Of a DNA stretch of 44,597 bases, positions 2,640-15,139 are shown one piece after another. Under the pieces are notes generated by a model. The model was not told the DNA's origin and did not search any database. It saw only the letters and a program-made list of their open reading frames with translations. Source of the stretch: Victivallales bacterium (GTDB lineage Bacteria > Verrucomicrobiota > Lentisphaeria > Victivallales > UBA1829); NCBI GenBank assembly GCA_045639225.1, contig JAZUCR010000697.1, positions 1 to 44,597 on the forward strand. Direction: 5' to 3'. Both the position numbers and the translations under genes were made by a program. Within the stretch, counting starts at the first letter, position 1. Each line of letters begins with the position of its first letter.

Positions 2640-5507
2640 TTAGTCGTAAATGGATCTCTCATACTTGGCGGTATAAGCCAGGGCAGGCATGGCGGAAATG
2701 CCGACCGTAACAGAAACGTAGGGATTCCATTCCTTGCGCCAGCGCTTCTTCGAACTGGAATATTCCCGGTCATTGGAAATACCTGTCGCCAGAATCAGAT
2801 ACCAGCAGTGGAAATCCCGGCGGAATATGACACCCAGACCGTCGATCAGGTCTTCATCGATGTCGTAAGAAGCGTAAATCCGGCCCTTAAGCCGTTTGTC
2901 GAAGGTGGGGAAAGCCAGGCTGGCGCTTACAGTCTGTTCCCTGGAGACAAAACTTTTGAAAGCAGTTGTGGCATTGATCATAGCCAGAGTGCTGCCCATG
3001 GAATACACCGTCCGCTGAGCATACGCATCGGAATAGTTATACCGGATAGTAAGATTCCAGTCCGTGGCGAACTTGTAATTGAAACCGGCATTGAACTTGT
3101 TGATCAAATTCCAGCTCAAACCAGGCCGGCCCACATTCTTTTTACCCCGGTAGACCTCATAATCATGATCATTATTGTTGCCCACATCCAGAAGCAGTTC
3201 GGTAAAAAAGGACAGTTTGTCAGTCGGCGTGAAACTCAGAATCGTCCCCAAATCTCCGATATGATTGAAATTGTCGGTCTTTTCGAAATGGAAATCCCAG
3301 TAATTTTCCATGGAAATCCATTGATAAAGCCGTTCATTCCGGCGGGTTTGCAGACGATTTTGAATACCAAGCCGGACAAATGCCGTTTTTTCAATCTGGT
3401 CGACTTCATCGAAATAATAAAGGTGCTGATAATCTTCAGTGGGTTTCGGAATATAAACCAGATTGAAATAAGGCACAGCCACATGGCGGAGTCCGTCGAT
3501 CTGCCAGAAGGCGTTCCGCGGGGTCTGCCAGGCACGGGAAAATTTAACATTTCCTTCCAATCCCAATTCCACAGCAAACCGGTAGCGGGCACCGCCTTTG
3601 TCATCATAGTTTTCCACTTTCAGCAGATAATCGGGCCAGCGGTATTTTTCATCCACAGCATACATCGTATAGAGATCCTCTACGGACATAGCTTTTTTCG
3701 AGGATTTCGAATAAGCGGTGAACCGTCCCACTGCACGCGGGATCAAGTTCAGAAAACCGAAGAGCTGAAACGGATAATACAAGGCATGAAGGGTATCAAA
3801 ACGATAGGATTCATAATCTTTCGGGTCGTTGAAATAGCCGGAAAAAGCGTCCGGATCGACTTCCTTCAGATATTTGGAAGCCCCGTATTTGTTCGTAGGT
3901 CCGCAGCGCTGGACGATTTCATTCCACCGATAGGTCTGATTTTCTTTTGCCAGGATGCTGTAAATATTCAGGTTGGGATTCATGCCGCGCGGGAAATCAT
4001 ATTCCCGCCACCGCGTCCGGTAGTATCCGGCCGAAGTTTCACCCTGATAATAGATATTTTTGAAGAGCTCCTGGCGGAAAAAATCAAACCGCAGTTCAGG
4101 CAGCCGTTCCACTGTGGTGTAGAAATCATTGACCCGGAACGTTGTCTGCAGCGTGGCGGAAAAACGTTCGCCCTGATATTCCACCGCGGCATAAGACGGC
4201 GGCTGCACATTCTCATTGTAACGGTGTTCGAAGAAATCTTCGAGGAAATTGAAATCGCTGATCACGTCCACCACACCGCGAAAATCAAGGTGCGGCGTCA
4301 GATGAGTCAAATTCGCCAGCCGGAATTCATACCGGTCATTCGGCAATTCATATCGTCCGTATTGCGAATACCATTCCTTGCGGGTCCAGCCCGCCTCCAC
4401 CTTATTCCAGTCATCATTCCAGTAATTGTAGGGGTTGCGGTCCCGCAAGTAATAGGCAAAAAATTCCGTTTTCGAATTGGCGGTCAGAATATCGACCGAG
4501 GCGCCCAGCCCCAGTCCGCGGTCAGAATAATAATCCACCATCAGGCCCGCCCGGATCACCGCCGGTTCTTCGATAATGTCGAATTCTTTGAGGGTCCTCA
4601 GATAATATCCCCAATCCGAATCTTTACCGAATTCGAACCGAATACCGAAAGAGTTGGAATCTGCCGGTTTATAGAGGGCCGGCAGCCAGAAAACCGGAAC
4701 ATTCCACACGTTGATGAAATCGCTCAGCATCAGCAGACTGTGTTCGCCCTGGTCCGGATTGTAATTATGAAGGCTTCGGTTCGCTTCCCGCGGTTTCAAT
4801 GTCATAACCGAAGATTTGATCCCGTAATGGGCATTCGAATCCATCTCATATTCGCAGGTCGTCATCCGCGCGTCGAACATTTTGACGGTTCCATTAGGAT
4901 AACGTTCCGCCAGAAAACCGCGGAAATACATATACCCGGCTTTGATAAAGAAATTCCGGAACTGGAATGCTCCGGTTTCCAGGCTGCCCGAAGCCCGCTC
5001 TGCCGACAAATACGCACAGTTCGATATCACGGTCGCACGAATCGTCTGATTTCCGTCCGGACTGGTATTGATCCCCTCCGCTATAACTTTGTATACCGGC
5101 TGTTCCAGCAGTTTTTCGTATTCTTCCGGGGTCAGATTCCGTTGTTCAGATACCTGCGTCGCAAAGGCAACATTCCCGGCCGCCTCCAGGTCTTTGGAAA
5201 GCAGATTGACCGTGATGGCATCCGCGGTGACCTGAAGGTTTTTCACTTTGATCACGGCATGACCCCGGGCAATCAGATTCGAACCGACGTATTCATACGT
5301 GTCCGCACTCATATCGATATCTTCCCGGGTCAGCGAACCGATTTGAGGCATCTGGAAAGTATCTTTCAGGTTGTTTACACCGCCCAGACCGGTTATGCCG
5401 CCGGTTCCTCCGATCGCCGCGCCCTGCAGAGACAGCAATCCCCCCGACGCTGTCACCAGAAGCATCAGTATCAATTTGCTTTTTTTCGTCAGTTCAGAAA
5501 AAAACAC
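2640..5507 (-). CDS. Large outer-membrane beta-barrel protein, LptD/OstA-like (LPS assembly)
   Basis: 955-aa ORF with a hydrophobic N-terminal signal (KLILMLLVTASGGLL). An OstA-like N-terminal pattern follows (ADTYEYVGSNLIARGHAVIKVKNLQVTADAITVNLLSKDLEAAGNVAF). The remainder is very long and rich in Tyr/Asn/Asp/aromatic residues, typical of a beta-barrel, and ends in aromatic-rich strands. This is a family-level call by eye. Confidence 0.55.
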   Translation of the reverse strand: MFFSELTKKSKLILMLLVTASGGLLSLQGAAIGGTGGITGLGGVNNLKDTFQMPQIGSLTREDIDMSADTYEYVGSNLIARGHAVIKVKNLQVTADAITVNLLSKDLEAAGNVAFATQVSEQRNLTPEEYEKLLEQPVYKVIAEGINTSPDGNQTIRATVISNCAYLSAERASGSLETGAFQFRNFFIKAGYMYFRGFLAERYPNGTVKMFDARMTTCEYEMDSNAHYGIKSSVMTLKPREANRSLHNYNPDQGEHSLLMLSDFINVWNVPVFWLPALYKPADSNSFGIRFEFGKDSDWGYYLRTLKEFDIIEEPAVIRAGLMVDYYSDRGLGLGASVDILTANSKTEFFAYYLRDRNPYNYWNDDWNKVEAGWTRKEWYSQYGRYELPNDRYEFRLANLTHLTPHLDFRGVVDVISDFNFLEDFFEHRYNENVQPPSYAAVEYQGERFSATLQTTFRVNDFYTTVERLPELRFDFFRQELFKNIYYQGETSAGYYRTRWREYDFPRGMNPNLNIYSILAKENQTYRWNEIVQRCGPTNKYGASKYLKEVDPDAFSGYFNDPKDYESYRFDTLHALYYPFQLFGFLNLIPRAVGRFTAYSKSSKKAMSVEDLYTMYAVDEKYRWPDYLLKVENYDDKGGARYRFAVELGLEGNVKFSRAWQTPRNAFWQIDGLRHVAVPYFNLVYIPKPTEDYQHLYYFDEVDQIEKTAFVRLGIQNRLQTRRNERLYQWISMENYWDFHFEKTDNFNHIGDLGTILSFTPTDKLSFFTELLLDVGNNNDHDYEVYRGKKNVGRPGLSWNLINKFNAGFNYKFATDWNLTIRYNYSDAYAQRTVYSMGSTLAMINATTAFKSFVSREQTVSASLAFPTFDKRLKGRIYASYDIDEDLIDGLGVIFRRDFHCWYLILATGISNDREYSSSKKRWRKEWNPYVSVTVGISAMPALAYTAKYERSIYD

Positions 5508-6534: not shown

Positions 6535-7371
6535 TTATTTCTTACACTTTTCGAGCACGCTTTCGAACCCTTTGCAGATCTTCGTTTCGAGGTATTTCAG
6601 CTTGGTCGAGGCCGGACACAGATAAACGGTTCCGGTTCCCGTATAAGTGTTGACCAGTCCTTCGCCGGAAAGCACCGAAGCAAAGAGTCCCCGGGTCGCT
6701 TTCTCCACCTTGAAATCCAGCGAGGCCGACCAGATGATCGCGAAATTCCCGTCCACGACCAGTTTTTCGTTGTTCAGTTCGATCTTTTCGAGCGGCCCGT
6801 CGGATTCCAGAATTACGCGTCCCTTCCCCGAAACCGTAGTCTGATAAAGTCCGTGTCCGGAGAGCAGACCCGTTCCCAGACTGTTCTTCCGGATTCCCAG
6901 CACCACACTGAGTTCGGAGGCATAATATCTGCCGTGATTGATGAGCCAGTCCTGGTTGTCGACGTCGAAAACCGTATATTGTCCGTAGGTCGGTTCCAGC
7001 ACGAGTTCCCCGGTGCCGGAATAGATCGGACGCCGGACCGATTCCCCGGTCAGCAGCGCTGCTCCGATCCCCGGGCCCGATGAGGAATCCATGGAGATGT
7101 TCCCCTTGTAATAATACATCGCTCCGGCTTCCGTCTGCAATGCGGTGTCATCCATTTTCACATGGACAAACTGCATGTCTTCTTTTTTGATGATTTCGAA
7201 CGTCAAAGCGTTGCGGGCGGCATCGGCGAGCGCCTTTTCGATGACCTGCTGTTTCTGCTGCTGGTCGGCTTCCTTCTTTTCAGCGCGTTTTTCGCTGATG
7301 TTCTGTGCGGTCTGTTTGGCCGCTTCGGCAGCCTGGGCGGCTTTCTCCTTCAGATTGTCTAAAAATGCCAT
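6535..7371 (-). CDS. AIM24-family (DUF124/TIGR00266-like) protein with a coiled-coil N-terminal extension
   Basis: The body matches the AIM24 pattern: TEAGAMYYYKGNISMD, LLTGESV, GTGELVLEP, LLSGHGLYQTTVSGKGRVILES, VVDGNFAIIWSASLDF, LSGEGLVNTYTGTGTVYLCP. About 55 N-terminal residues are Ala/Lys/Gln/Glu-rich and helical. The start is set at the ATG at 7371, preceded by GGAGGG at about 5 nt; the track ORF starts at 7383. Confidence 0.82.
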   Translation of the reverse strand: MAFLDNLKEKAAQAAEAAKQTAQNISEKRAEKKEADQQQKQQVIEKALADAARNALTFEIIKKEDMQFVHVKMDDTALQTEAGAMYYYKGNISMDSSSGPGIGAALLTGESVRRPIYSGTGELVLEPTYGQYTVFDVDNQDWLINHGRYYASELSVVLGIRKNSLGTGLLSGHGLYQTTVSGKGRVILESDGPLEKIELNNEKLVVDGNFAIIWSASLDFKVEKATRGLFASVLSGEGLVNTYTGTGTVYLCPASTKLKYLETKICKGFESVLEKCKK

Positions 7372-7427
7372 TTTTCCCTCCATTGGGTTTTGATCTTCGT
7401 TCGCGTCTTTGCGAACGGAGGGAAAAT

Positions 7428-7473
7428 TAACGGCAGGGGTCTGTCATTTTGTGTCAGACCCGGTTGATCTCCG
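7428..7473. repeat. Intergenic repeat copy 1 with hairpin (GGGGTCTG..CAGACCCC region) between LRAT-like gene 1 and the AIM24 gene
   Basis: TAACGGCAGGGGTCTGTCATTTTGTGTCAGACCCGGTTGATCTCCG is nearly identical (2 mismatches by eye) to 8253-8298. It contains a 7-bp stem GGGTCTG/CAGACCC and TGTCA-N5-TGTCA. Confidence 0.85.
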
Positions 7474-7510
7474 ACGGATTATCTTGTTTTTTCGGATTGG
7501 AAAATGAAAT

Positions 7511-8194
7511 TCAGTAATCCCATTTTACCCAGGTCAGAGATCCGAGTTTATACTTGATCATGGTTTCAAGCATTCCGAACAACTTGCAGGGATTATCGAA
7601 CTCTCCGGTGATACATCCGCAGGTAAACTGGTGGCAGTTGTCAAAGAAAACATTATAATTCCTTCTGCTGCCGGCCATGGATCTGGCCCGGTTCGCAATG
7701 CTCTTTCTGCAGAGCGGTGTCCCATCGGATTTTGCCGCGTAAAAAATGGCTTCCGCGGGATTGTCGCCATCCAGCCGTGCAACAAAATCCTGCGGTGATA
7801 CGATCTCAATATTGCCGTCGCCGCTCAGGTGGACGATTTCATCGTCTCCGATATAGATCCCCGTGTGTTCCACCACCACAGCCAGATTGCAATATACCGG
7901 CGTACCGGGTGCGGGTTCGGAACAGGTTCGAAAGACTTTCTGAATCGGATTATCCAGTTCGAGTTTTCTTCTTATTTCATCAAGAGTATCGAGGGGATTC
8001 GGTCCACGCGGACCATCCGGCACGGGAAATCCCGGCCCCCGGAAAATACTCCCGAGACTGATCGAATTGCTGTCATCATCGGAAGCATCGTCATCGTCTT
8101 CCGATGTGTTATTGTCCCACAGTTCATCCCAGGCTTTTCCAACCTCTTTGCGGAATTGTTCGTTTGCCTCATCGAAAAAATCAAAAAGTCCCAT
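7511..8194 (-). CDS. LRAT-type NlpC/P60 (NC-domain) papain-like protein, paralog 1, with an acidic/Pro-rich N-terminal region
   Basis: MGLFDFFDEANEQF... followed by the catalytic signature EHTGIYIG, IVHL and NCHQFTCGC (the His / His / Cys layout of the LRAT/PLAAT family). The start is set at the ATG at 8194, preceded by AAAGGAGGATTCGAA. About 60% identical to the adjacent paralog across the catalytic domain, by eye. Confidence 0.8.
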   Translation of the reverse strand: MGLFDFFDEANEQFRKEVGKAWDELWDNNTSEDDDDASDDDSNSISLGSIFRGPGFPVPDGPRGPNPLDTLDEIRRKLELDNPIQKVFRTCSEPAPGTPVYCNLAVVVEHTGIYIGDDEIVHLSGDGNIEIVSPQDFVARLDGDNPAEAIFYAAKSDGTPLCRKSIANRARSMAGSRRNYNVFFDNCHQFTCGCITGEFDNPCKLFGMLETMIKYKLGSLTWVKWDY

Positions 8195-8252
8195 TTCGAA
8201 TCCTCCTTTTTTCGGATAATAAGATGCAGAGCTTTGCAATTTCCGGGAAAAA

Positions 8253-8308
8253 TAACGGCAGGGGTCTGTCATTTTATGTCAGACCCGGTTGATCTCCGCG
8301 GTTTTTTG
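8253..8308. repeat. Intergenic repeat copy 2 (hairpin plus a non-coding relic of the WYL gene 3' end)
   Basis: 8253-8298 matches 7428-7473. 8279-8308 (TCAGACCCGGTTGATCTCCGCGGTTTTTTG) matches 8926-8955 with 1 mismatch; the latter encodes the last codons and stop of the WYL regulator. Confidence 0.85.
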
Positions 8309-8326
8309 TGTCATACAGAAGGTTTT

Positions 8327-8842
8327 TCAGTAATCCCATTTCAGCCAGGTGAATTTGCCCAGTCTGTCCTGAATCTCCATGTTGACCATCCAGAAGAAAT
8401 TACAGGAATTTTCGAAGTCGCCGGAAATGCAGCCGCAGGTAAACTGATGACAGTTGTCAATGACCCAGTGATAATTGCGTCTCCTTCCGACCATGGATCT
8501 TGCCCGGTTTGCAATGTTCTTTTTCCCCAAAGCTTTTCCCGCTCTGCCGGCACAATAAATGGAAACTGCGGGGTTTAAACCATCCAGACGGGCTACAAAA
8601 TTCCGCGGCGAGACGGTTTCTATATCGCCATCGCCGTTCAGGTGCACGATCTCACCGTTTCCGATATATATTCCGGTATGTTCCGCCACTACTGCCAGTT
8701 TGCAGTAGACCGGGGTCCCCGGCGCGGGTTCGCCTTCCAGCCATGGAATTCTGCGGGGTTCTCTTACCAAAACGGGCGTTCGGGGCATCATACCGGGAGT
8801 CGGTACGCCGATAATCGGACCACAGATATCAAAAAGTCCCAT
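8327..8842 (-). CDS. LRAT-type NlpC/P60 (NC-domain) papain-like protein, paralog 2
   Basis: MGLFDICGP... then EHTGIYIG, IVHL and NCHQFTCGC. The C-terminus LGKFTWLKWDY compares with LGSLTWVKWDY in paralog 1. The 5' UTR and RBS are near-identical to those of paralog 1 (AAAGGAGGATTCGAAATGGGACTTTTTGAT). Confidence 0.8.
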   Translation of the reverse strand: MGLFDICGPIIGVPTPGMMPRTPVLVREPRRIPWLEGEPAPGTPVYCKLAVVAEHTGIYIGNGEIVHLNGDGDIETVSPRNFVARLDGLNPAVSIYCAGRAGKALGKKNIANRARSMVGRRRNYHWVIDNCHQFTCGCISGDFENSCNFFWMVNMEIQDRLGKFTWLKWDY

Positions 8843-8925
8843 TTCGAATCCTCCTTTTTCCGGATAATAAGCTCCAGCGCTTTGCTTTTTCCGGAAAAAT
8901 TTATCTGAATGGGACTTTTTTTATC

Positions 8926-9918
8926 TCAGACCCGGTTGATTTCCGCGGTTTTTTGCGCCAGATTACAGATTTTTTCCCGCAGCCATTGGGGCTCCAGCAC
9001 CTCGACATTGCCGCCCTCCCCGAGGATCCAGCGGAGCGCTTCCGCTTCCGTCGACGGCGGCAAAACCACGATCAGCGATCCATCCTCCTGCGGCGCGATA
9101 ACGAGCTTTTTCGCCTTGCGCTGCTCGTAAAGATAATAGGCGATTTCAGGCGCGCATTTCACGCGGATGTTTTCGATTTTCGGATAATTGAACAGACCTT
9201 CTTTCTCCGTCTGCTTCAGAATATCTTTGCGGATCTTGAACTCGAAACGGGTAATTTCCGCCTTCTGGATGCGGAAGATCGCCAGCACGATCACTTTATC
9301 ATCGGCGAGATTCACTCCTTTGAGATACCAATTGCCCTTGTGATATGCCACGATATGCGGTTCGAAGTCCCGTTCGGATACCTCGCCGGTGGAGCCTTTC
9401 TGGTAGACGAGATGCAGCACATGCCGTTCCCGCCACGCTTGAAAAACCGTGCCGAAGATCTCCGGCGGAATGGTGGTCTTGCCGCAGGAGGCGATCAGTA
9501 AGGTTTCGATATACGTCTGGTCCAGCAGTTCGGAATTGTTGTCCGCAATGGAATTGTCCACCGCGTCCCGGATCTGTTCCTTGATTGGCGACGGCATGAT
9601 TTTTTCCGCGAGTTGAGCTCCCAGCATGGCGGACATCACCATCTCATCGTCCATGAACGGGACTTTCAGTTCCCAGCAAGTATTGGTCAGAAAATATCCG
9701 TTGTTTTCCTGCGAAAATTCGATGGGTGCGCCGAAATCCTTCCGGAGCGTATCCAGATCGCGCATGATGGTGCGTTCCGAACAGGAGATATTGAGGTTTT
9801 CATCCAGCTCCATCTCCCGGAGTTTGCGTGTGAACGTGGAGGCGTTGGGATAGTTGTTTTTCCGCATTTCCGCCACAAACCGGATCATGCGCAGCAGCTG
9901 TTTTTTGTTGATCGGCAT
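8926..9918 (-). CDS. WYL-domain transcriptional regulator (N-terminal wHTH, WYL, C-terminal extension; BrxR/CapW-like architecture)
   Basis: 330 aa. N-terminus: QLLRMIRFVAEMRKNNYPNASTFTRKL...SERTIMRDLDTLRK (HTH). Central region: ERHVLHLVYQKG...ERDFEPHIVAYHKGNWYLKGV (WYL-type motif). The C-terminal region IRVKCAPEIAYYLYE...ALRWILGEGGNVEVLEPQWLRE is typical of the WCX-like tail. Confidence 0.85.
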   Translation of the reverse strand: MPINKKQLLRMIRFVAEMRKNNYPNASTFTRKLREMELDENLNISCSERTIMRDLDTLRKDFGAPIEFSQENNGYFLTNTCWELKVPFMDDEMVMSAMLGAQLAEKIMPSPIKEQIRDAVDNSIADNNSELLDQTYIETLLIASCGKTTIPPEIFGTVFQAWRERHVLHLVYQKGSTGEVSERDFEPHIVAYHKGNWYLKGVNLADDKVIVLAIFRIQKAEITRFEFKIRKDILKQTEKEGLFNYPKIENIRVKCAPEIAYYLYEQRKAKKLVIAPQEDGSLIVVLPPSTEAEALRWILGEGGNVEVLEPQWLREKICNLAQKTAEINRV

Positions 9919-9965
9919 GGTCCTCCCCTTTCGTTTTTGATAATATACCTCTAATCTTTTACAAT

Positions 9966-9993
9966 GTCAAACGCGGATGACAAAAAATGTCAT
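9966..9993. promoter_or_regulatory. Candidate operator in the divergent WYL / plus-strand operon promoter region
   Basis: TGTCA-AACGCGGA-TGACA-AAAAA-TGTCA: three alternating half-sites. They include the perfect palindrome ATGACAAAAAATGTCAT (9977-9993), in the 120-bp gap between divergent starts at 9918 and 10039. Confidence 0.4.
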
Positions 9994-10038
9994 ACCGTGC
10001 GGGTTATACTATGCACAGAACAACCCGAGAGGAGAAAA

Positions 10039-10479
10039 ATGGAAATCAATTACAAGCATCCCGAGTTCGCCGTCTGGCATTTGGCCGATACGCCGATCCA
10101 AACCATCCCGTATGGGGCGCTGATCAAATGGTTCGACCAGGTGATCCAGTTCGGATTCCACCTCGGCGGCGGCATTATTGCCTGGCGGGATGGTCTGATC
10201 TCGGCGGATAATCTTGATACCGATCCCGGTCTGCCGTGGAAACGGAAGACCTGTGTTTTGGCTCAACAGGGAAAGGCGGTTGTTTTCAGGGAACCGGCCA
10301 TGCGTTCGAATTCCTGTTCCGGACTTTATCACAGCCGGCAGGATTTCATTTCCGGATGTCTCGGCGAGGATCTGGCGGACTGGGGAAACTTTCCCGTCTG
10401 GATTTTCGAACGTTACGGCAAATGTTTTCTGCATCCCGTCACCCATGATGCCGAATATGAAAAATCATGCCATGAGTAA
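10039..10479 (+). CDS. Hypothetical protein (146 aa), first gene of the plus-strand arm
   Basis: ORF with GAGAGGAGAAAA immediately before the ATG at 10039 (MEINYKHPEF...). I recognise no domain. It contains several Cys/His (CSGLYH, CFLHPVTH, SCHE). Confidence 0.6.
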   Translation: MEINYKHPEFAVWHLADTPIQTIPYGALIKWFDQVIQFGFHLGGGIIAWRDGLISADNLDTDPGLPWKRKTCVLAQQGKAVVFREPAMRSNSCSGLYHSRQDFISGCLGEDLADWGNFPVWIFERYGKCFLHPVTHDAEYEKSCHE

Positions 10480-10584: not shown

Positions 10585-11187
10585 ATGGAAACACTTGACA
10601 CCCGGTTCCGCCATTTTCAACAACACAACAAAGGCGACGGCTCGCTGCAGTCGGTCACTTTCTGGGGCGACAAAACCAAGATTCAGGCCCTCACCAGTTT
10701 CCGGTACGGCCGGCATGAAATTTATAATGAGTATATGCGGATCAACTGCGAGGAAAAGTCTTACCGGGAGAGAGTGGTCGACCGTCCCGAATACAATGCC
10801 TCGGAATACGACCCGACTCAGTGGCGGATCATCTGCAGCTATGAAGAAATCGTCAAGCGGGTCCGGCAGCTGCATCTGGCCGTCGAAGTTTTTGCATCGA
10901 CCGATGCCGATCTCAAGCAGCTGGTAAAGCCCGTTCCGGAATTTTCCATTACCGGATCGATGTGGCAGGAAAAAATGGTCGAGTTCCGGGAAAAGGAACA
11001 GTCCGGGACTGAGGACACCCAAATGGTTTTCTTCAATTCGATCACCTGCTGTAAATCCCTTCTGCCGCTCTATAAATATATTCGGGAAAACGGCGAATTC
11101 GACCGTGAGATCGAAGCTCTCATCTTCGGATTCTACCGGCACGACATGGCACAGTATCAGAAAGACACCGGAAAGGACGGTTTTTGA
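10585..11187 (+). CDS. Hypothetical protein (about 200 aa)
   Basis: The track ORF runs 10486-11187, but only the ATG at 10585 (METLDTRF...) has a strong RBS (CAGGAGGAGAAGCT). No recognisable domain. Confidence 0.6.
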   Translation: METLDTRFRHFQQHNKGDGSLQSVTFWGDKTKIQALTSFRYGRHEIYNEYMRINCEEKSYRERVVDRPEYNASEYDPTQWRIICSYEEIVKRVRQLHLAVEVFASTDADLKQLVKPVPEFSITGSMWQEKMVEFREKEQSGTEDTQMVFFNSITCCKSLLPLYKYIRENGEFDREIEALIFGFYRHDMAQYQKDTGKDGF

Positions 11188-11338
11188 GGTCTATGGAATA
11201 TCCCCTGACGCAAAATGACAGAGGCATGAAATTATATTCCCTTAAAAAAATATGAAAATTTTTTCGTTCCGCACGATAAACAACCAGTCCATGCAGCGTA
11301 TAATAGATGCAGGGCGCAATCGAAAGGAGAAAGGTCAC

Positions 11339-11743
11339 ATGACGGAAAAAGAAAAAAACATCCTCACCCAGGAACTGTGGGCGCTGGTCTCGCTGGGATT
11401 CGACGCCACGAAACATGACTTCGAGATCATGGAAAAAATCATCAAATGCGTCGCGAAGGAAGATTCCGGCGAAATGACCCCTTACAAACGCAAGGTCATC
11501 GAGGAACTTCAGCTGGAGTGGCGTTTCCTGAGATCCCTCCACGAAGATCTCGCCGCAATCGCCGCCCGGCTCGAAAAGAGTGAAATCGTCCCCGCCGTTC
11601 CCGACCTGTCCATCAATGATGAGCTCTGGAAAGTCTGCAAATCCGGTGCCTCGGATGCGCTTTACGAAACCAGCGACAAAATCAGCGATTTTCAGTCCGC
11701 GCTTCAGGACTGCGCTTTTCAGCTTCAGGAGGTGTGCGCATGA
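11339..11743 (+). CDS. Hypothetical helical protein (134 aa)
   Basis: ATG at 11339 preceded by AAAGGAGAAAGGTCAC (MTEKEKNILTQELW...). The stop overlaps the next start (ATGA). No recognisable domain. Confidence 0.6.
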   Translation: MTEKEKNILTQELWALVSLGFDATKHDFEIMEKIIKCVAKEDSGEMTPYKRKVIEELQLEWRFLRSLHEDLAAIAARLEKSEIVPAVPDLSINDELWKVCKSGASDALYETSDKISDFQSALQDCAFQLQEVCA

Positions 11744-11934
11744 GTTCATTTGTTCCTATGCCGACCAGGATCCATCACTGGAAATGTCCGAAATGCGGGA
11801 AGGAAACTACCACCACGGAAAGACCGAATCCTCTGATCCATACGTGTCTGCCGCTGTTTTTCGGGTCCGCCCGGCCGCCGGTCTGTCCCAAATGCAAGGT
11901 CAAAATGGTCAAAATGTCGGTCTGGAGTGTGTGA
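11740..11934 (+). CDS. Small zinc-ribbon protein (64 aa, two CPKC pairs)
   Basis: MSSFVPMPTRIHHWKCPKCGKE...RPPVCPKCKVKM gives a CxxC...CxxC pattern. AGGAGG lies about 8 nt upstream, and there is an ATGA overlap with the preceding gene. Confidence 0.6.
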   Translation: MSSFVPMPTRIHHWKCPKCGKETTTTERPNPLIHTCLPLFFGSARPPVCPKCKVKMVKMSVWSV

Positions 11935-12022: not shown

Positions 12023-12547
12023 ATGAGTGATTTTGAAGAATTTGTGGATTGTCTTTCGGATGCGACCAAACAGCTGTTCAGCGACATCGAAGACGCATGG
12101 AATGAACTCAAAGAGGATCTGCGCGAAACCGTAACGGTCAAATATCTGCGCCCCGGCGGCGTGGCATACTGCCGTAAGGACGGGAAAAAGTTTTACGGCA
12201 TCCTCACCGGCACGGAGATCATTTCTCTCAACGGCGAGAATGAACCCGAATATATGGAATTGAAAGATTTCCTGCAGATGCACGATGCGGATACGCTCAA
12301 AGTCGCCGGGAAAAACCGTATCGCCGTCGGTTCCCATGAGGTGGATTTTGCCGCCCGGAACGCCGTCGAAGAGGAACGTTTTCCCTCCACGAAAACTTTC
12401 GTCCTGAAATGCCTCGGCGTGGAAGATACTGCGAAAGTCGATGATGCGCTCGAAAAGAAATTCGGTTCGTTCGAGTGGCTGACTTACGATCTGCCTGAAG
12501 AAACTGCCGAAGACTCGGAAGAAGAACAGGAAGAAGCTGCCGAATGA
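12023..12547 (+). CDS. Degenerate LRAT-like NlpC/P60 paralog lacking both catalytic histidines, with an acidic C-terminal tail
   Basis: PGGVAYCRKDGKKFYGILTGTEIISLNGENEPEYMELKDFL aligns by eye with PGTPVYCNLAVVVEHTGIYIGDDEIVHLSGDGNIEIVSPQDFV of paralog 1 (His to Phe, His to Ser). FGSFEWLTYDL aligns with LGSLTWVKWDY. The tail is PEETAEDSEEEQEEAAE. RBS GAAAGGAAG. ATGA overlap with the kinase gene. Confidence 0.7.
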   Translation: MSDFEEFVDCLSDATKQLFSDIEDAWNELKEDLRETVTVKYLRPGGVAYCRKDGKKFYGILTGTEIISLNGENEPEYMELKDFLQMHDADTLKVAGKNRIAVGSHEVDFAARNAVEEERFPSTKTFVLKCLGVEDTAKVDDALEKKFGSFEWLTYDLPEETAEDSEEEQEEAAE

Positions 12548-13665
12548 ATTTGTTCTGGTCACATCTGTTTTCCTCTTCACCGAAGCGGACAGTCCGGCCG
12601 GCCCCGCGCAGGAAGCCTAAGGCACCGCCCGTCGGCGCCGACTGGCTGGCTCTGGCGAAGGCTCCGCCGGACCGTTCCCGCACGGTATATGATCCGACCG
12701 GTGCGGCTCTGGCGCTGCGGAAATCGGATGTCCTGGCACACGGCGGCGAAGGCGTGGTATATAATTTTGCAAAAAATCCCGCCTTCCTGATCAAAGTCTG
12801 CAAGGACGACACGCTGCGCGACAGCCGCAAACTGGCCGCTTTCCGCGACCGTCTCGATGCGATGCTGGCGCTGGTGGAATGCCGCAACGCCCCATTCCTC
12901 GCCTGGCCGCTGATGCCCGTTTTCGATCAGAATAAAAACGTTATCGGATTTGTGATGCGCAAAACCTCCGGACGAACCCTTCGGGCGCTTTACGCGCCGT
13001 GTCAGGTCAGACGCTTCTTTCCCGGCTGGGACCGGCTGAGCGTGACCCGGGTCGCTTTGAATCTGGTCAACGCCGTCCAGATGCTGGCGCGCCACCGCGT
13101 GCTGGTCAACGATTTCAACCCGGACAACTTCCTCATCGATCCCTTCGGAAATGTCCGCCTGATCGACTGCGACAGTTTTCAGATCCCCGGCGCGGGCGAC
13201 AACCAGAACACGTTCCTCACCCGCACCTTCACCCCGGAATATACCGCTCCCGAACTGCTGTTCCATCCGGAGCTCTTCAACCGGGAACGCACCCCTGAGC
13301 AGGTCCGGTTCAGCCTCGCCGTCGTGGTCTACATGATCCTGATGAGCGGACTCCATCCCTATGCCCAGTGCGGCGGGACCGATCCGGTCGACAACGTCAA
13401 ATCGGGCAAATGCCCGCTGACCCGCCGCGGCGGCGTCCGCCTTCCGGTCGGATGGTTCAAATCCGTCAGCTGGCTCACGCCCGGGTTGAAACACCTTTTC
13501 ATCCGGATGTTTGTCGACGGCCACAGCGATCCGCTGAAACGGCCCATGCTCGGCGAACTCAAATCCGAACTCGAAAATTTTATCATCGTAATGCGTTCAA
13601 GTAAAAACCCCAACCAAAGGGCAATCCTGCCCGACAAAGCAAAAAGAAAGGACAAAACCGCATGA
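12544..13665 (+). CDS. Hanks-type (eukaryote-like) protein kinase, TerY-P triad / YegI-like
   Basis: G-loop HGGEGVVY, Lys in FLIKVCK, catalytic loop VNDFNPDNFLI, metal-binding LIDCDSF (DFG equivalent), and TPEYTAPE (APE). The N-terminus is a basic, Pro-rich region. Confidence 0.85.
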   Translation: MNLFWSHLFSSSPKRTVRPAPRRKPKAPPVGADWLALAKAPPDRSRTVYDPTGAALALRKSDVLAHGGEGVVYNFAKNPAFLIKVCKDDTLRDSRKLAAFRDRLDAMLALVECRNAPFLAWPLMPVFDQNKNVIGFVMRKTSGRTLRALYAPCQVRRFFPGWDRLSVTRVALNLVNAVQMLARHRVLVNDFNPDNFLIDPFGNVRLIDCDSFQIPGAGDNQNTFLTRTFTPEYTAPELLFHPELFNRERTPEQVRFSLAVVVYMILMSGLHPYAQCGGTDPVDNVKSGKCPLTRRGGVRLPVGWFKSVSWLTPGLKHLFIRMFVDGHSDPLKRPMLGELKSELENFIIVMRSSKNPNQRAILPDKAKRKDKTA

Positions 13666-14372
13666 ACGACTACACCGAAGAAACCGCCCTCGACGTCACC
13701 AACCCCGCTCCCCGCTGCCCCGTCATCCTGATGCTGGACACCTCCGGCAGCATGTCCGGCGCGCCGTTACGCGAACTCCAGGAAGGGCTCACCCAGTTCC
13801 TGCGCGAGACCAGCGACGACGAAACCGCCAGCATGAGCGTGGAACTCGAAGTCATCACCTTCGGCGGCAATACCGAAATCGCCGCCCCGTTCGCACCCGT
13901 GAACGTGGTTAACGACAATCCGCCGATTCTCGACGCCAACGGCTCCACTCCGCTGGGCGAAGCCCTCAGACTCGCCGATTCCGAGCTCAAAGCACGCCGC
14001 CGTCTCTACAAGCAGAAAGGCATCTCCAGCTACAAACCGTGGATCATCCTGATGACCGATGGATGTCCCAATGACGACTGGAAAAGCGCCGCCGCGTCCA
14101 TGAAGCAGATGGGCGAAGAAAAACGTCTGCAGTACATCGGCATCGGCATCGGCGATGAGGCCGATTTCGACACTCTGCGCCAAATCCTTCCCGAACATCC
14201 GGGCCCGGTCAAACTCAAAGGTCTGTGCTTCCGTGAATTCTTCAAATGGCTGACCGATTCGCTCAAAAGCGTTTCCGCCAGTTCCGTGGCACAGCAGGAC
14301 GCGGTCGTCCTGGGCAATGTCAACTCCTGGGCCGACCTCGCCGGCACCCCGATGCTGGAGGAAGGTAAATGA
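13662..14372 (+). CDS. von Willebrand factor A domain protein, TerY/YegL-like
   Basis: MIDAS motif LMLDTSGSMSG, GSTPLGEAL, and IILMTDGCPND. About 236 aa, typical of TerY-like vWA proteins. ATGA overlaps on both sides. Confidence 0.9.
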   Translation: MNDYTEETALDVTNPAPRCPVILMLDTSGSMSGAPLRELQEGLTQFLRETSDDETASMSVELEVITFGGNTEIAAPFAPVNVVNDNPPILDANGSTPLGEALRLADSELKARRRLYKQKGISSYKPWIILMTDGCPNDDWKSAAASMKQMGEEKRLQYIGIGIGDEADFDTLRQILPEHPGPVKLKGLCFREFFKWLTDSLKSVSASSVAQQDAVVLGNVNSWADLAGTPMLEEGK

Positions 14373-15139
14373 GCGAGTTCCGGGGATTCGCTGTATCGGT
14401 TCCCGGCAACGGACACATCCGCAGGGAGATCCCCTGTCAGGATGCGTCCGGCGTGTGGCTTGCGCCGCGTCCGTGCCTGATCGTGTGCGACGGACGCGGC
14501 AGCGCCCGCTATTCCCATTTCGGCGCACGGGCGGCGGTGAAAGCCTTCCGCAGCCAATGTGCCGTGATGGATGGTCTGCTTTATTCCATCCTGGACTGCG
14601 AGCGCTGGAACGACCGCCGCTGGCTCCGTTTCTGCAATCTGATGATCCGGACCGTCTGTCAGCAGAAAAAGGAACTCGCCGAACAGTATCAGTGCCCGGA
14701 ATCCGAGTTCGATTTCACGATCGCGTTTGCTGTCTGGGGCAAAGCACGCTGCGGCTTCTTCCAGGTCGGCGACGGCGCCATCGTCATCCGCGAGGGTGAA
14801 GAGAATTGTTATTCGCTCTTTCCGCCGGACAAAGGGGAATACGACAATGAAACACGTTTTCTCCGGCCCGAGGCTGAGATCCGCCGCGATTACCATGCCC
14901 GGCTGATTGCCTCGGACGACATCGACGGCATTGCGATCACGAGTGACGGTCCGGAATTCCTGATGTTCGATCTTGCGGAAATGACACCCGGTCCGATTTT
15001 CAACAAAATGTTCGATGATTGTTCTGCCGGGAATCTGACGAGACAGGACCTGCTGGATTATCTGACCCGGGGCTGCTGGGCGAAAGATCCCCGCGGCAAT
15101 GACGACCGCAGTATCGCCATACTGTCTATGACAGAATAA
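14369..15139 (+). CDS. PP2C-family protein phosphatase (PP2C_2 type, YegK/PphC-like)
   Basis: NGHIRREIPCQDASGV, LIVCDGRGSA, FQVGDGAIVI, and GIAITSDGPEFL: the conserved Asp-containing motifs of bacterial PP2C_2 phosphatases found in TerY-P triads. Confidence 0.85.
   Translation: MSEFRGFAVSVPGNGHIRREIPCQDASGVWLAPRPCLIVCDGRGSARYSHFGARAAVKAFRSQCAVMDGLLYSILDCERWNDRRWLRFCNLMIRTVCQQKKELAEQYQCPESEFDFTIAFAVWGKARCGFFQVGDGAIVIREGEENCYSLFPPDKGEYDNETRFLRPEAEIRRDYHARLIASDDIDGIAITSDGPEFLMFDLAEMTPGPIFNKMFDDCSAGNLTRQDLLDYLTRGCWAKDPRGNDDRSIAILSMTE

Follow-up and report, generated by a model that had tools for sequence, protein, structure and literature searches.

Kinase/PP2C/vWA Triads and Noncatalytic NlpC/P60 Proteins

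As summarized in PMC11090510 and PMC4978471, the TerY-P triad (Anantharaman et al. 2012) consists of a TerY-like vWA protein, a Ser/Thr protein kinase, and a PP2C phosphatase; vWA/kinase/PP2C triads are tied there to conflict and stress islands, and the C-terminus of the TerY-P kinase is described as fused to a zinc ribbon in the CoCoNuT type and to an OB fold in the Gao type. TerY-P-like defense modules have likewise been reported (Gao et al. 2020). In this report, we examine such a triad from a Victivallales bacterium (GenBank assembly GCA_045639225.1, contig JAZUCR010000697.1), using "the window" to mean the entire stretch of 44,597 nucleotides that was analyzed. In this island, the gene immediately preceding the kinase encodes a conserved, catalytically dead paralog of two LRAT-family proteins that are also encoded there. 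We call this protein pseudo-LRAT, and its most likely role is to regulate the active LRATs rather than to act as an enzyme.

The window locus resembles TerY-P in carrying an adjacent, active-looking kinase, a standalone vWA protein with an intact metal ion-dependent adhesion site (MIDAS), and a PP2C phosphatase, which is the adjacency that characterizes the core triad. The kinase motifs GGEGVVY, K84, DFNPDN, DCD, and APE are intact and invariant in the kinase alignment, and the vWA gene overlaps the kinase and PP2C genes on either side by 4 nt. Several differences are evident. The window kinase has no CxxC pairs and no extra domain after its core, so the fused zinc ribbon or OB fold of TerY-P kinases is absent. 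Instead, a separate zinc-ribbon gene lies two genes upstream, and this may be the same module as the ribbon fused to TerY-P kinases elsewhere. The gene order is also distinct, with kinase, vWA, and PP2C following pseudo-LRAT and a 134-aa protein beside a divergent WYL gene, and it is LRATs, not nucleases or McrBC, that accompany the triad. A PADLOC scan yielded no match for the vWA protein or PP2C and weak matches of the kinase to PD-T4-6 and mad6, although the presence of TerY-P models in that library is unverified. Among PHROG families, phrog_28389 is matched by nearly the entire vWA protein (E = 3e-50) and phrog_37888 by the kinase (E = 7e-22), and neither has a known function.

A related published arrangement is the GTPase-centric conflict system, to which genes for a kinase, a PP2C, and a standalone vWA protein are linked (Kaur et al. 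2020, PMC7159879). A sister triad at one related locus (L040, 4903..7957; kinase 58% and WYL 44% identical to those of the window) matches this association, in that a WYL gene is followed by genes for a 153-aa protein, an 841-aa tandem-GTPase protein, kinase, vWA, and PP2C. The 841-aa protein has two P-loop GTPase domains and a glycine-rich C-terminus, and the set of 134-aa, zinc-ribbon, and pseudo-LRAT genes is absent from this locus. By contrast, no NTPase is encoded ahead of the window kinase, where the slot is taken by the dead LRAT together with the helical protein and the zinc ribbon. In a further sister triad (L044), a possible NYN-like nuclease fragment, assigned by eye, occupies the pseudo-LRAT slot.

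Members of the NlpC/P60 superfamily that lack catalysis include mycobacterial RipD, vertebrate LRATD1/2 (FAM84A/B), and the 2A H-box/NC proteins of parechovirus and Ljungan virus. Pseudo-LRAT is similar to these proteins in being a superfamily member without catalysis that appears to be retained for binding or regulation, and viral 2A structures are found among its weaker Foldseek matches. However, RipD is secreted and binds peptidoglycan, the LRATD proteins are eukaryotic, and 2A is viral, and all belong to different clades. None of them is known to reside in a kinase/PP2C/vWA operon or to have a live paralog as its partner beside a WYL regulator. Literature searches for LRAT in combination with vWA/PP2C/kinase, or in combination with anti-phage effectors, found no relevant work. 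Pseudoenzyme paralog regulators and TerY-P-like triads are each known kinds of system.

Pseudo-LRAT Retains the LRAT Fold and Lacks All Three Catalytic Residues

Pseudo-LRAT is homologous to both active LRATs of the window. BLASTP aligns it with paralog 2 (LRAT2) over 145 aa at 24% identity (E = 2e-8) and with paralog 1 (LRAT1) at E = 2e-4. A comparison by hhalign between the pseudo-LRAT family profile and a profile made from nine active LRATs of related loci returns a probability of 99.2% (E = 3.1e-19). The active-clade profile matches structures of PLAAT2/3/4 (E about 1e-7), and its H, H, and NC residues align with those of PLAAT2/3, so the reference residues can be taken as the canonical catalytic triad.

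At these three positions, pseudo-LRAT carries Phe57, Ser68, and Thr123 (Table 1). Throughout its family, the first His position is occupied by F, Y, or another non-His residue and the second by S, T, or A, with His retained there only by P0138, the most LRAT-like outlier. The position of the catalytic Cys holds T, S, A, or P, being Ser or Thr in nearly all members and Pro in P0138. Distant members (25-55% identity) keep the core, and the full triad is never present among them; P0138 keeps the second His alone.

The initial annotation of this gene, made from the sequence alone, had described a catalytically dead LRAT paralog with clear homology to its two neighbors, Phe and Ser in place of the two His residues, and matching C-termini. 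Each of these statements holds, including the last, as ...FGSFEWLTYDL of pseudo-LRAT aligns with ...LGKFTWLKWDY of an active paralog. One detail requires correction. The NCHQF motif of the active enzymes was thought to be reduced to LKCLG, and this equivalence is ruled out by three independent alignments (BLAST, MAFFT, and hhalign). NCHQF instead faces S122-T123-K124-T125-F126, whereas the Cys of LKCLG (Cys130) is a separate, noncatalytic residue that aligns with the second Cys of the "CGC" following NCHQF and is invariant in active and inactive members. Because the nucleophile is therefore also replaced, all three catalytic residues are lost, which makes the pseudoenzyme assignment stronger than it was. 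Judging from these substitutions, enzymatic activity of pseudo-LRAT is very unlikely.

A noncanonical enzyme might, for example, employ Thr123 or Ser122 as a nucleophile, or Cys130 or Cys50 with His87 or His105. Ser or Thr does occupy the old Cys position in nearly all members, and the close clade shows no variation at C50, C130, H87, or H105. Nevertheless, both general-base His residues are gone, and the inclusion of distant members in the deep family alignment leaves no conserved His that could replace them. The initial annotation had named catalytic His residues at shifted positions as a possible counterexample, and His87 and His105, the candidates for such a shift, are invariant only within the close clade and unconserved in distant members. 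Cys50 and Cys130 are equally conserved in the active paralogs and hence look structural, and P0138 has Pro at the nucleophile position. We therefore regard a noncanonical enzyme as highly improbable.

The predicted structure leads to the same family. An AlphaFold model built from a 46-sequence alignment has a mean predicted local distance difference test score (pLDDT) of 82, with values of ~95 for core residues 41-160 and low confidence for the N-terminal helix and acidic tail. The top eight Foldseek matches in PDB are all YiiX or PLAAT2/3/4, with probabilities of 0.77-1.0 (0.97-1.0 for the top seven); the structures matched are those of PLAAT3 (7c3z, 4dot, 4fa0, and 7zom), PLAAT2 (4dpz), PLAAT4 (7zot), and YiiX (2if6). 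Target-normalized template modeling scores are 0.56-0.63 for PLAAT2/3, 0.47 for PLAAT4, and ~0.37-0.39 for YiiX, and the E-values are modest (~1e-2). An earlier, weaker AlphaFold model produced the same list. These results agree with the permuted papain-like alpha+beta fold of LRAT/PLAAT, in which the His strands precede the nucleophile helix. The profile and structure comparisons that had been suggested as checks both support the initial reading of the gene as an LRAT paralog.

Pseudo-LRAT therefore shares fold and topology with LRAT/PLAAT proteins (PF04970, the permuted NlpC/P60 branch) and is homologous to the local PF04970 paralogs, but it has Phe/Ser/Thr for His-His-Cys and falls below any Pfam threshold. 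It is further set apart by its acidic tail and by a long N-terminal helix, which some active bacterial members also possess. Given an LRAT/PLAAT fold and descent combined with failure of the triad and of the Pfam threshold, the protein is best called an LRAT-like pseudoenzyme.

A Small, Lineage-Restricted Family Under Purifying Selection

The ratio of nonsynonymous to synonymous substitution rates (dN/dS) for pseudo-LRAT is 0.05-0.19 against eight orthologs, and the kinase, vWA, PP2C, and WYL genes fall in the same range. A word-indexed search of 5.8 billion proteins recovered 250 relatives, all intact and all unnamed or "hypothetical," and every record among them that bears a taxon belongs to Lentisphaeria. 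When 1.84 billion cluster representatives (50% identity level) were searched exhaustively with a profile, only 24 were found at E<=1e-3. The named distant members are Victivallaceae, and all 13 genome loci are from Lentisphaeria/Victivallales metagenome-assembled genomes of gut or rumen origin. Invariants of the close clade include YLRPG, YGI.TGT, VEEE.FPS, LKCL, and FG..WL. No Pfam family is matched at E<=1, no NCBIfam, PHROG, or PADLOC family is matched, and there is no PDB sequence match; the sole PDB hits, to MurA at E = 0.03, were judged to be due to chance. The family is thus small, lineage-restricted, and unannotated.

These data bear on the possibility that pseudo-LRAT is a functionless, decaying relic of a duplicated LRAT gene. 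The loss of the catalytic triad and the deletion of the gene in one metagenomic variant (L033) might be cited in favor. However, the dN/dS values, the 250 intact homologs with many invariant residues, the confidently predicted fold, and the conservation of operon position and stop/start overlap down to 37% identity make a relic hardly credible, and a decaying pseudogene is ruled out by dN/dS and conservation. Homology, loss of the triad, low dN/dS, and the number of intact homologs together identify pseudo-LRAT as a fold-keeping, catalytically dead LRAT paralog that is retained by selection.

A phage origin of the cassette was also considered and rejected. The IMG/VR viral collection holds no relative of pseudo-LRAT, and the vWA protein has only three weak matches in phage records, which are unannotated and from the human gut (30-37% identity).

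Two unusual sequences were encountered among the family matches. P0128 (L045, 143..1897) is a 584-aa protein in which LRR_5 and Sel1 repeats are fused to a C-terminal pseudo-LRAT domain that is 57% identical to the window protein; no kinase gene follows it, and as it derives from a single short contig, it could be an assembly chimera. Fusions to Sel1 repeats occur in type-B active LRATs as well (L004, 16546..17391), a hint that an interaction module is shared. P0143 (418 aa, repetitive) gives five matches to profile residues 32-60 (SLRPAGT...KFYGLRS repeats) and seems not to be a true relative but the translation of a DNA repeat.

The Pseudo-LRAT and Kinase Genes Share a Conserved Junction

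The pseudo-LRAT open reading frame (ORF) begins with ATG at 12023, which is preceded by a Shine-Dalgarno-like stretch, AAAGGAAG. Its TGA stop codon (12545-12547) and the kinase ATG (12544-12546) form an exact ATGA overlap, and the ATG at 12544 is the farthest-upstream in-frame start available to the kinase. Both the overlap and the strongly acidic tail (residues 158-174) had been pointed out in the initial annotation, and comparison extends the close junction to nearly all relatives. In ~20 different junction sequences, the stop codon of pseudo-LRAT either overlaps or directly adjoins the start codon of the kinase, and this is true even of L011, whose pseudo-LRAT is 37% identical. Three junction types are observed, namely ATGA, ATG...TAA with an 11-nt overlap, and TAATG, which are written out as ATGA, ATGCTGAATAA, and TAATG.

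The last codons of the acidic tail constitute a purine-rich GGAAGAAG stretch located 8-14 nt before the kinase ATG, which is a Shine-Dalgarno spacing. The tail sequence may therefore be partly constrained as a ribosome-binding site for the kinase, in addition to any constraint at the protein level. A GGAAGA-type purine stretch, which in the window corresponds to GAA/GAG runs of tail codons (12500..12546), is conserved across the junctions of relatives.

Linkage to the Triad and to Active LRATs

Mapping of the window proteins onto 58 related loci revealed a conserved cassette in which a divergent WYL/WCX gene is followed by genes for the 134-aa helical protein, the zinc ribbon (in most loci), pseudo-LRAT, kinase, vWA, and PP2C. 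Active LRATs lie <=8-10 kb from 10 of 16 distinct triad cassettes (window, L004, L018, L019, L020, L022, L023, L024, L032, and L037). Their positions vary, being after WYL, right after PP2C, or convergent downstream, and their strands differ; in the window, the live LRATs are not adjacent to pseudo-LRAT, but are encoded on the opposite strand 3.2 kb away.

Closer pairings are found in two divergent lineages. In L055/L056 (pseudo-LRAT 43% identical), the WYL gene is followed by genes for a 135-aa protein (p135), pseudo-LRAT, a 125-aa protein with a signal peptide (p125), and an active LRAT of 170 aa (type B; L055, 11147..11659), beyond which lies an insertion sequence. The pseudo-LRAT of L057/L058 (about 40% identity) is followed after ~110 nt by an LRAT of the active type, which is frameshifted in the assembly. 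No kinase, vWA, or PP2C gene is detectable in L055/L056 or L057/L058, which indicates that the pairing of dead and live LRATs, together with the 134-aa protein and WYL, is wider than the link to the triad. The connection to active LRATs that was initially suggested from one locus is thus reinforced by comparative genomics, both through the 10 cassettes and through the placement of pseudo-LRAT upstream of a live LRAT in these triad-less lineages. The three roles named in the initial annotation, a regulatory mimic, an inhibitor, or a phosphorylation target, all stand as candidates.

The same loci can be explained in another manner. Pseudo-LRAT could be a subunit of the triad only, serving as a scaffold, sensor, or main substrate of the kinase/PP2C/vWA switch without acting on active LRATs. 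For example, its vestigial groove could bind a lipid, acyl, or peptide ligand, or its acidic tail could be offered to the vWA MIDAS. The nearness of LRATs would then reflect common descent, with pseudo-LRAT exapted from such an effector, and the tendency of conflict genes to cluster in islands. This explanation accommodates several facts: a kinase gene follows every close family member with readable context, with stop and start overlapping or abutting; LRATs are missing from the vicinity of six cassettes; the motifs of the kinase, of the vWA protein (MIDAS), and of PP2C are all preserved; other conflict-type genes occur as neighbors, including UvrD/PIF1 helicases, a YoeB/YefM pair, a glycine-zipper protein, and a MORC-like ATPase; and the sister triads bear unrelated proteins in the same slot (L040 and L044). 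It does not readily account for the triad-less lineages, in which pseudo-LRAT shares an operon with an active LRAT, for P0136, which has no kinase downstream, or for the survival of LRAT linkage through many rearrangements. On balance, we consider a role restricted to the triad, the main alternative to a gate on active LRATs, to be doubtful.

A Proposed Gate on Active LRATs

We favor a model wherein pseudo-LRAT is a noncatalytic partner that gates the active LRAT effectors and that has come under phospho-control in this lineage, and we assign it a probability of roughly 45%. According to this model, pseudo-LRAT would bind the active LRATs, or occupy their site of action, through its LRAT fold and shared N-terminal helix, and thereby keep them off. 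The helix motif EAN.QF...AWDEL is common to the pseudo-LRAT family and active LRAT1, and all local active LRATs open with a similar M-G/S-x-F-x-x-F segment. In this lineage, the kinase, PP2C, and MIDAS-bearing vWA protein would have been joined to pseudo-LRAT, with the kinase made in step with it by means of the overlapping stop and start codons. Phosphorylation of pseudo-LRAT, or binding of its acidic tail by the vWA MIDAS, would then release or re-set the gate, and the entire island would be transcribed from the divergent promoter region beside the WYL regulator. The functional claim for pseudo-LRAT is drawn entirely from comparative genomics, from which we infer LRAT binding and its inhibitory direction, phosphorylation of pseudo-LRAT, contact between its tail and the MIDAS, and a defense or stress role for the island.

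Several observations weigh against this model. First, no LRAT is present within 8-10 kb in the remaining 6 of the 16 cassettes (L001, L011, L014, L016, L027, and L029), such that the partner must be encoded elsewhere or pseudo-LRAT works without one; Victivallales genomes with a cassette of this kind include GCA_017445715.1, GCA_024405675.1, and SUWI01. Among these is the closest relative of the window (L014, 91% identity), whose flanking housekeeping genes are syntenic with those of the window, and which lacks both LRATs, as well as AIM24, at the corresponding site between rsuA and WYL. Second, three subtypes with a mutual identity of only 34-42% are represented among the neighboring active LRATs, whereas pseudo-LRAT stays at least 65% identical, which argues against a tight, specific heterodimer. 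Third, the net charges of pseudo-LRAT (-23), LRAT2 (+3), and LRAT1 (-17) show no consistent complementarity. Fourth, the occupation of the L040 slot by a tandem GTPase demonstrates that this slot need not hold an LRAT regulator. Finally, no Ser or Thr is invariant in the deep family alignment, so a universal phosphorylation site is not evident; the Ser or Thr at the old Cys position was considered as a universal phospho-acceptor and was dismissed because it is frequent yet not universal.

Some of these points also affect the comparison with type II toxin-antitoxin systems. In L055 and L057, a small, acidic, dead paralog is encoded just upstream of a live enzyme, and the active LRAT clade resembles a conflict effector in having prophage and viral copies. 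However, the window and most relatives encode their live LRATs on the opposite strand or at a distance of kilobases, or lack them, and pseudo-LRAT has no DNA-binding domain, with regulation appearing to reside with WYL. Charge complementarity was rejected as antitoxin-like support, given that LRAT2 is basic and LRAT1 is acidic. The LRAT-less cassettes, the three LRAT subtypes, and the inconsistent charges all speak against a strict antitoxin role.

The inhibitory direction of the gate could also be reversed, with the dead paralog acting as a prozyme-like subunit that switches a live LRAT on or brings it to its substrate, at times set by the triad. Dead paralogs activate or target some eukaryotic enzymes. 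The same co-localization and operon evidence applies to this alternative as to an inhibitory gate, the fold and N-terminal helix are retained, and an LRAT/PLAAT3 chimera (4q95) that appears in the Foldseek and profile match lists is a domain-swapped dimer. On the other hand, members of the active clade stand alone in prophages and other genomes that lack pseudo-LRAT and so need no such partner to exist, and the gene order (dead copy first) and acidic character suit an inhibitor at least equally well. For these reasons, we judge an activating or targeting subunit to be distinctly unlikely.

If the inhibitory gate is correct, it might be extended to a more specific proposal, which we consider speculative and unlikely as a whole, that the island is an undescribed defense or suicide system of gut Victivallales. 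The dead LRAT would then serve as a phospho-controlled safety catch on LRATs that attack membrane lipids. The vWA/kinase/PP2C module would sense an insult and either phosphorylate pseudo-LRAT or capture its acidic tail at the MIDAS, the freed live LRATs would damage the membrane, and WYL would set the level of expression.

Active LRATs and the Surrounding Island

LRAT1 and LRAT2 are 65% identical and represent a tandem duplication that includes the 5' leader (7511..8920), as ...YYP(K/E)KGGFE precedes MGLFD in both extended frames. The duplicated leader peptide suggests that LRAT1 probably starts at the Met at 8194 rather than at 8272. Their clade reaches beyond Lentisphaeria. A lone member with 54% identity is located, in opposite orientation, within a prophage of Aeromonas veronii (CP121832.1; L048, 8001..8543), between holin/endolysin (lysis) genes and late-region/late-regulatory genes, which is a typical accessory ("moron") position. 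Five further members reside on IMG/VR viral contigs (L050-L054). These prophage and viral copies fit an identity of the active clade as a conflict-type effector. The window island contains no candidate effectors other than the two LRATs and AIM24.

Table 1. Positions of pseudo-LRAT, its substituted catalytic sites, and other island genes in the window
Feature	Position	Strand	Remarks
Pseudo-LRAT gene	12023..12547	+	174 aa; predicted N-terminal helix ~5-36, LRAT-type core ~41-157, acidic tail 158-174
Phe57, codon TTT	12191..12193	+	First catalytic His position of LRAT/PLAAT (EHTGIY); BLAST, MAFFT, and hhalign alignments
Ser68, codon TCT	12224..12226	+	Second catalytic His position (IVHL); BLAST, MAFFT, and hhalign alignments
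Thr123, codon ACG	12389..12391	+	Catalytic Cys position of NCHQF; BLASTP and hhalign alignments
Acidic C-terminal tail of pseudo-LRAT (PEETAEDSEEEQEEAAE)	12494..12544	+	Kept in most family members
Ser/Thr protein kinase	12544..13665	+	373 aa; Pfam Pkinase E = 8e-10; motifs intact
Standalone vWA protein	13662..14372	+	236 aa; Pfam VWA E = 1.8e-10; MIDAS DTSGS...T...D intact
PP2C-family phosphatase	14369..15139	+	256 aa; Pfam PP2C_2 E = 4.5e-34
Active LRAT paralog 2	8327..8842	-	171 aa; Pfam LRAT (PF04970) E = 2.2e-9; His-His-Cys intact, aligned to PLAAT2/3
Active LRAT paralog 1	7511..8194	-	227 aa from likely start at MGLFD Met; Pfam LRAT E = 2.1e-10
134-aa helical protein, MTEKEK...	11339..11743	+	Start set by orthologs; most constant upstream partner of pseudo-LRAT
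Zinc-ribbon protein, CPKCG...CPKCK	11740..11934	+	~64 aa; unannotated; overlaps stop of 134-aa gene
Accessory protein, unknown function	10585..11187	+	200 aa; start set by 76%-identical L001 ortholog
Accessory ORF, unknown function	9964..10479	+	171 aa; start uncertain
WYL/WCX transcription regulator	8926..9918	-	330 aa; Pfam WYL, WCX, HTH_11; PADLOC WYL E = 5e-29
AIM24-family protein	6535..7383	-	Pfam AIM24 E = 3e-44; last of minus-strand gene string

The most constant partners of pseudo-LRAT, which the initial annotation had overlooked, are the 134-aa protein, the zinc ribbon, and the WYL regulator. Upstream of pseudo-LRAT, the 134-aa protein precedes it in L001, L004, L011, and L047/L055, with a probable match in L013 and a weak one in L010, and its distribution is as narrow as that of pseudo-LRAT itself. 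The zinc-ribbon ORF, whose product gives weak matches to zinc-ribbon families, is kept in L001, L011, L014-L018, and L027-L032 and is absent from L004-type loci. The two accessory genes are more sporadic. The 200-aa protein is found in L001, L015, L032, and L033 and is absent elsewhere, and the 171-aa ORF has orthologs in L017 and L027 and mere remnants in L001 and L029. The cassette of L033 is decayed (2689..2851): what is left of the 134-aa protein (its N-terminus) and of the zinc-ribbon protein (its C-terminus) is joined in one ORF of 52 aa, pseudo-LRAT is deleted, and the kinase begins 4 nt further on.

The WYL regulator stands beside the cassette in nearly all loci, down to 44-54% identity, as expected for a WYL-associated island. 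In the 46-nt gap between WYL and the 171-aa ORF, two strong sigma-70-like promoter matches overlap (9937..9970), with one on each strand, TTGACA-17-TATATT (minus) and TTGATA-17-TACAAT (plus). Since the plus-strand -10 box ends at 9965, the 171-aa ORF may start downstream of its annotated start. A further promoter-like site lies just before the 134-aa gene (11277..11304).

Housekeeping genes in synteny with L014 mark the boundaries of the window island. The slot downstream of WYL is a variable cargo slot whose contents depend on the genome (L001, 5435..7178; L004, 5450..8401; window, 6535..8842). It holds the two LRATs and AIM24 in the window; the RNA-repair/ribosome-rescue pair RtcB-PrfH in L001 and L023; FGE-sulfatase-RtcB-PrfH in L004 and L019; AIM24-FGE-RtcB-PrfH in L022, where the AIM24 ortholog adjoins the WYL gene; LRAT-FGE-RtcB in L020; a radical-SAM protein in L011; YefM-YoeB in L013; and a glycine-zipper protein in L055. 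The AIM24 gene may belong to the island.

Implications for TerY-P-Like Triads and Bacterial LRAT Proteins

TerY-P-type kinase/PP2C/vWA triads are widespread in bacterial conflict islands. The cassette described here is a compact case in which a conserved, nonenzymatic protein is tied both to the kinase gene and to LRAT/PLAAT-like lipid acyl hydrolases/transferases. It offers a testable candidate for the missing substrate or output of such a triad, as well as an entry point to the cytoplasmic LRAT proteins of bacteria. Because the pseudo-LRAT family is unannotated in every library searched, its description alone fills a gap in the annotation of Lentisphaeria genomes.

If the dead paralog is indeed both the target of the kinase and a gate on the active LRATs, the cassette would offer a testable mechanism for a triad and a bacterial example of the control of an enzyme by its pseudoenzyme paralog. 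It would also provide a first role for the cytoplasmic LRAT-family proteins of bacteria, which are encountered among the accessory genes of prophages as well. Should the island further prove to employ pseudo-LRAT as a safety catch on membrane-attacking LRATs, it would represent the first enzyme/pseudoenzyme paralog pair to serve as effector and gate in a bacterial conflict system, and the first defined output of a TerY-P-like triad.

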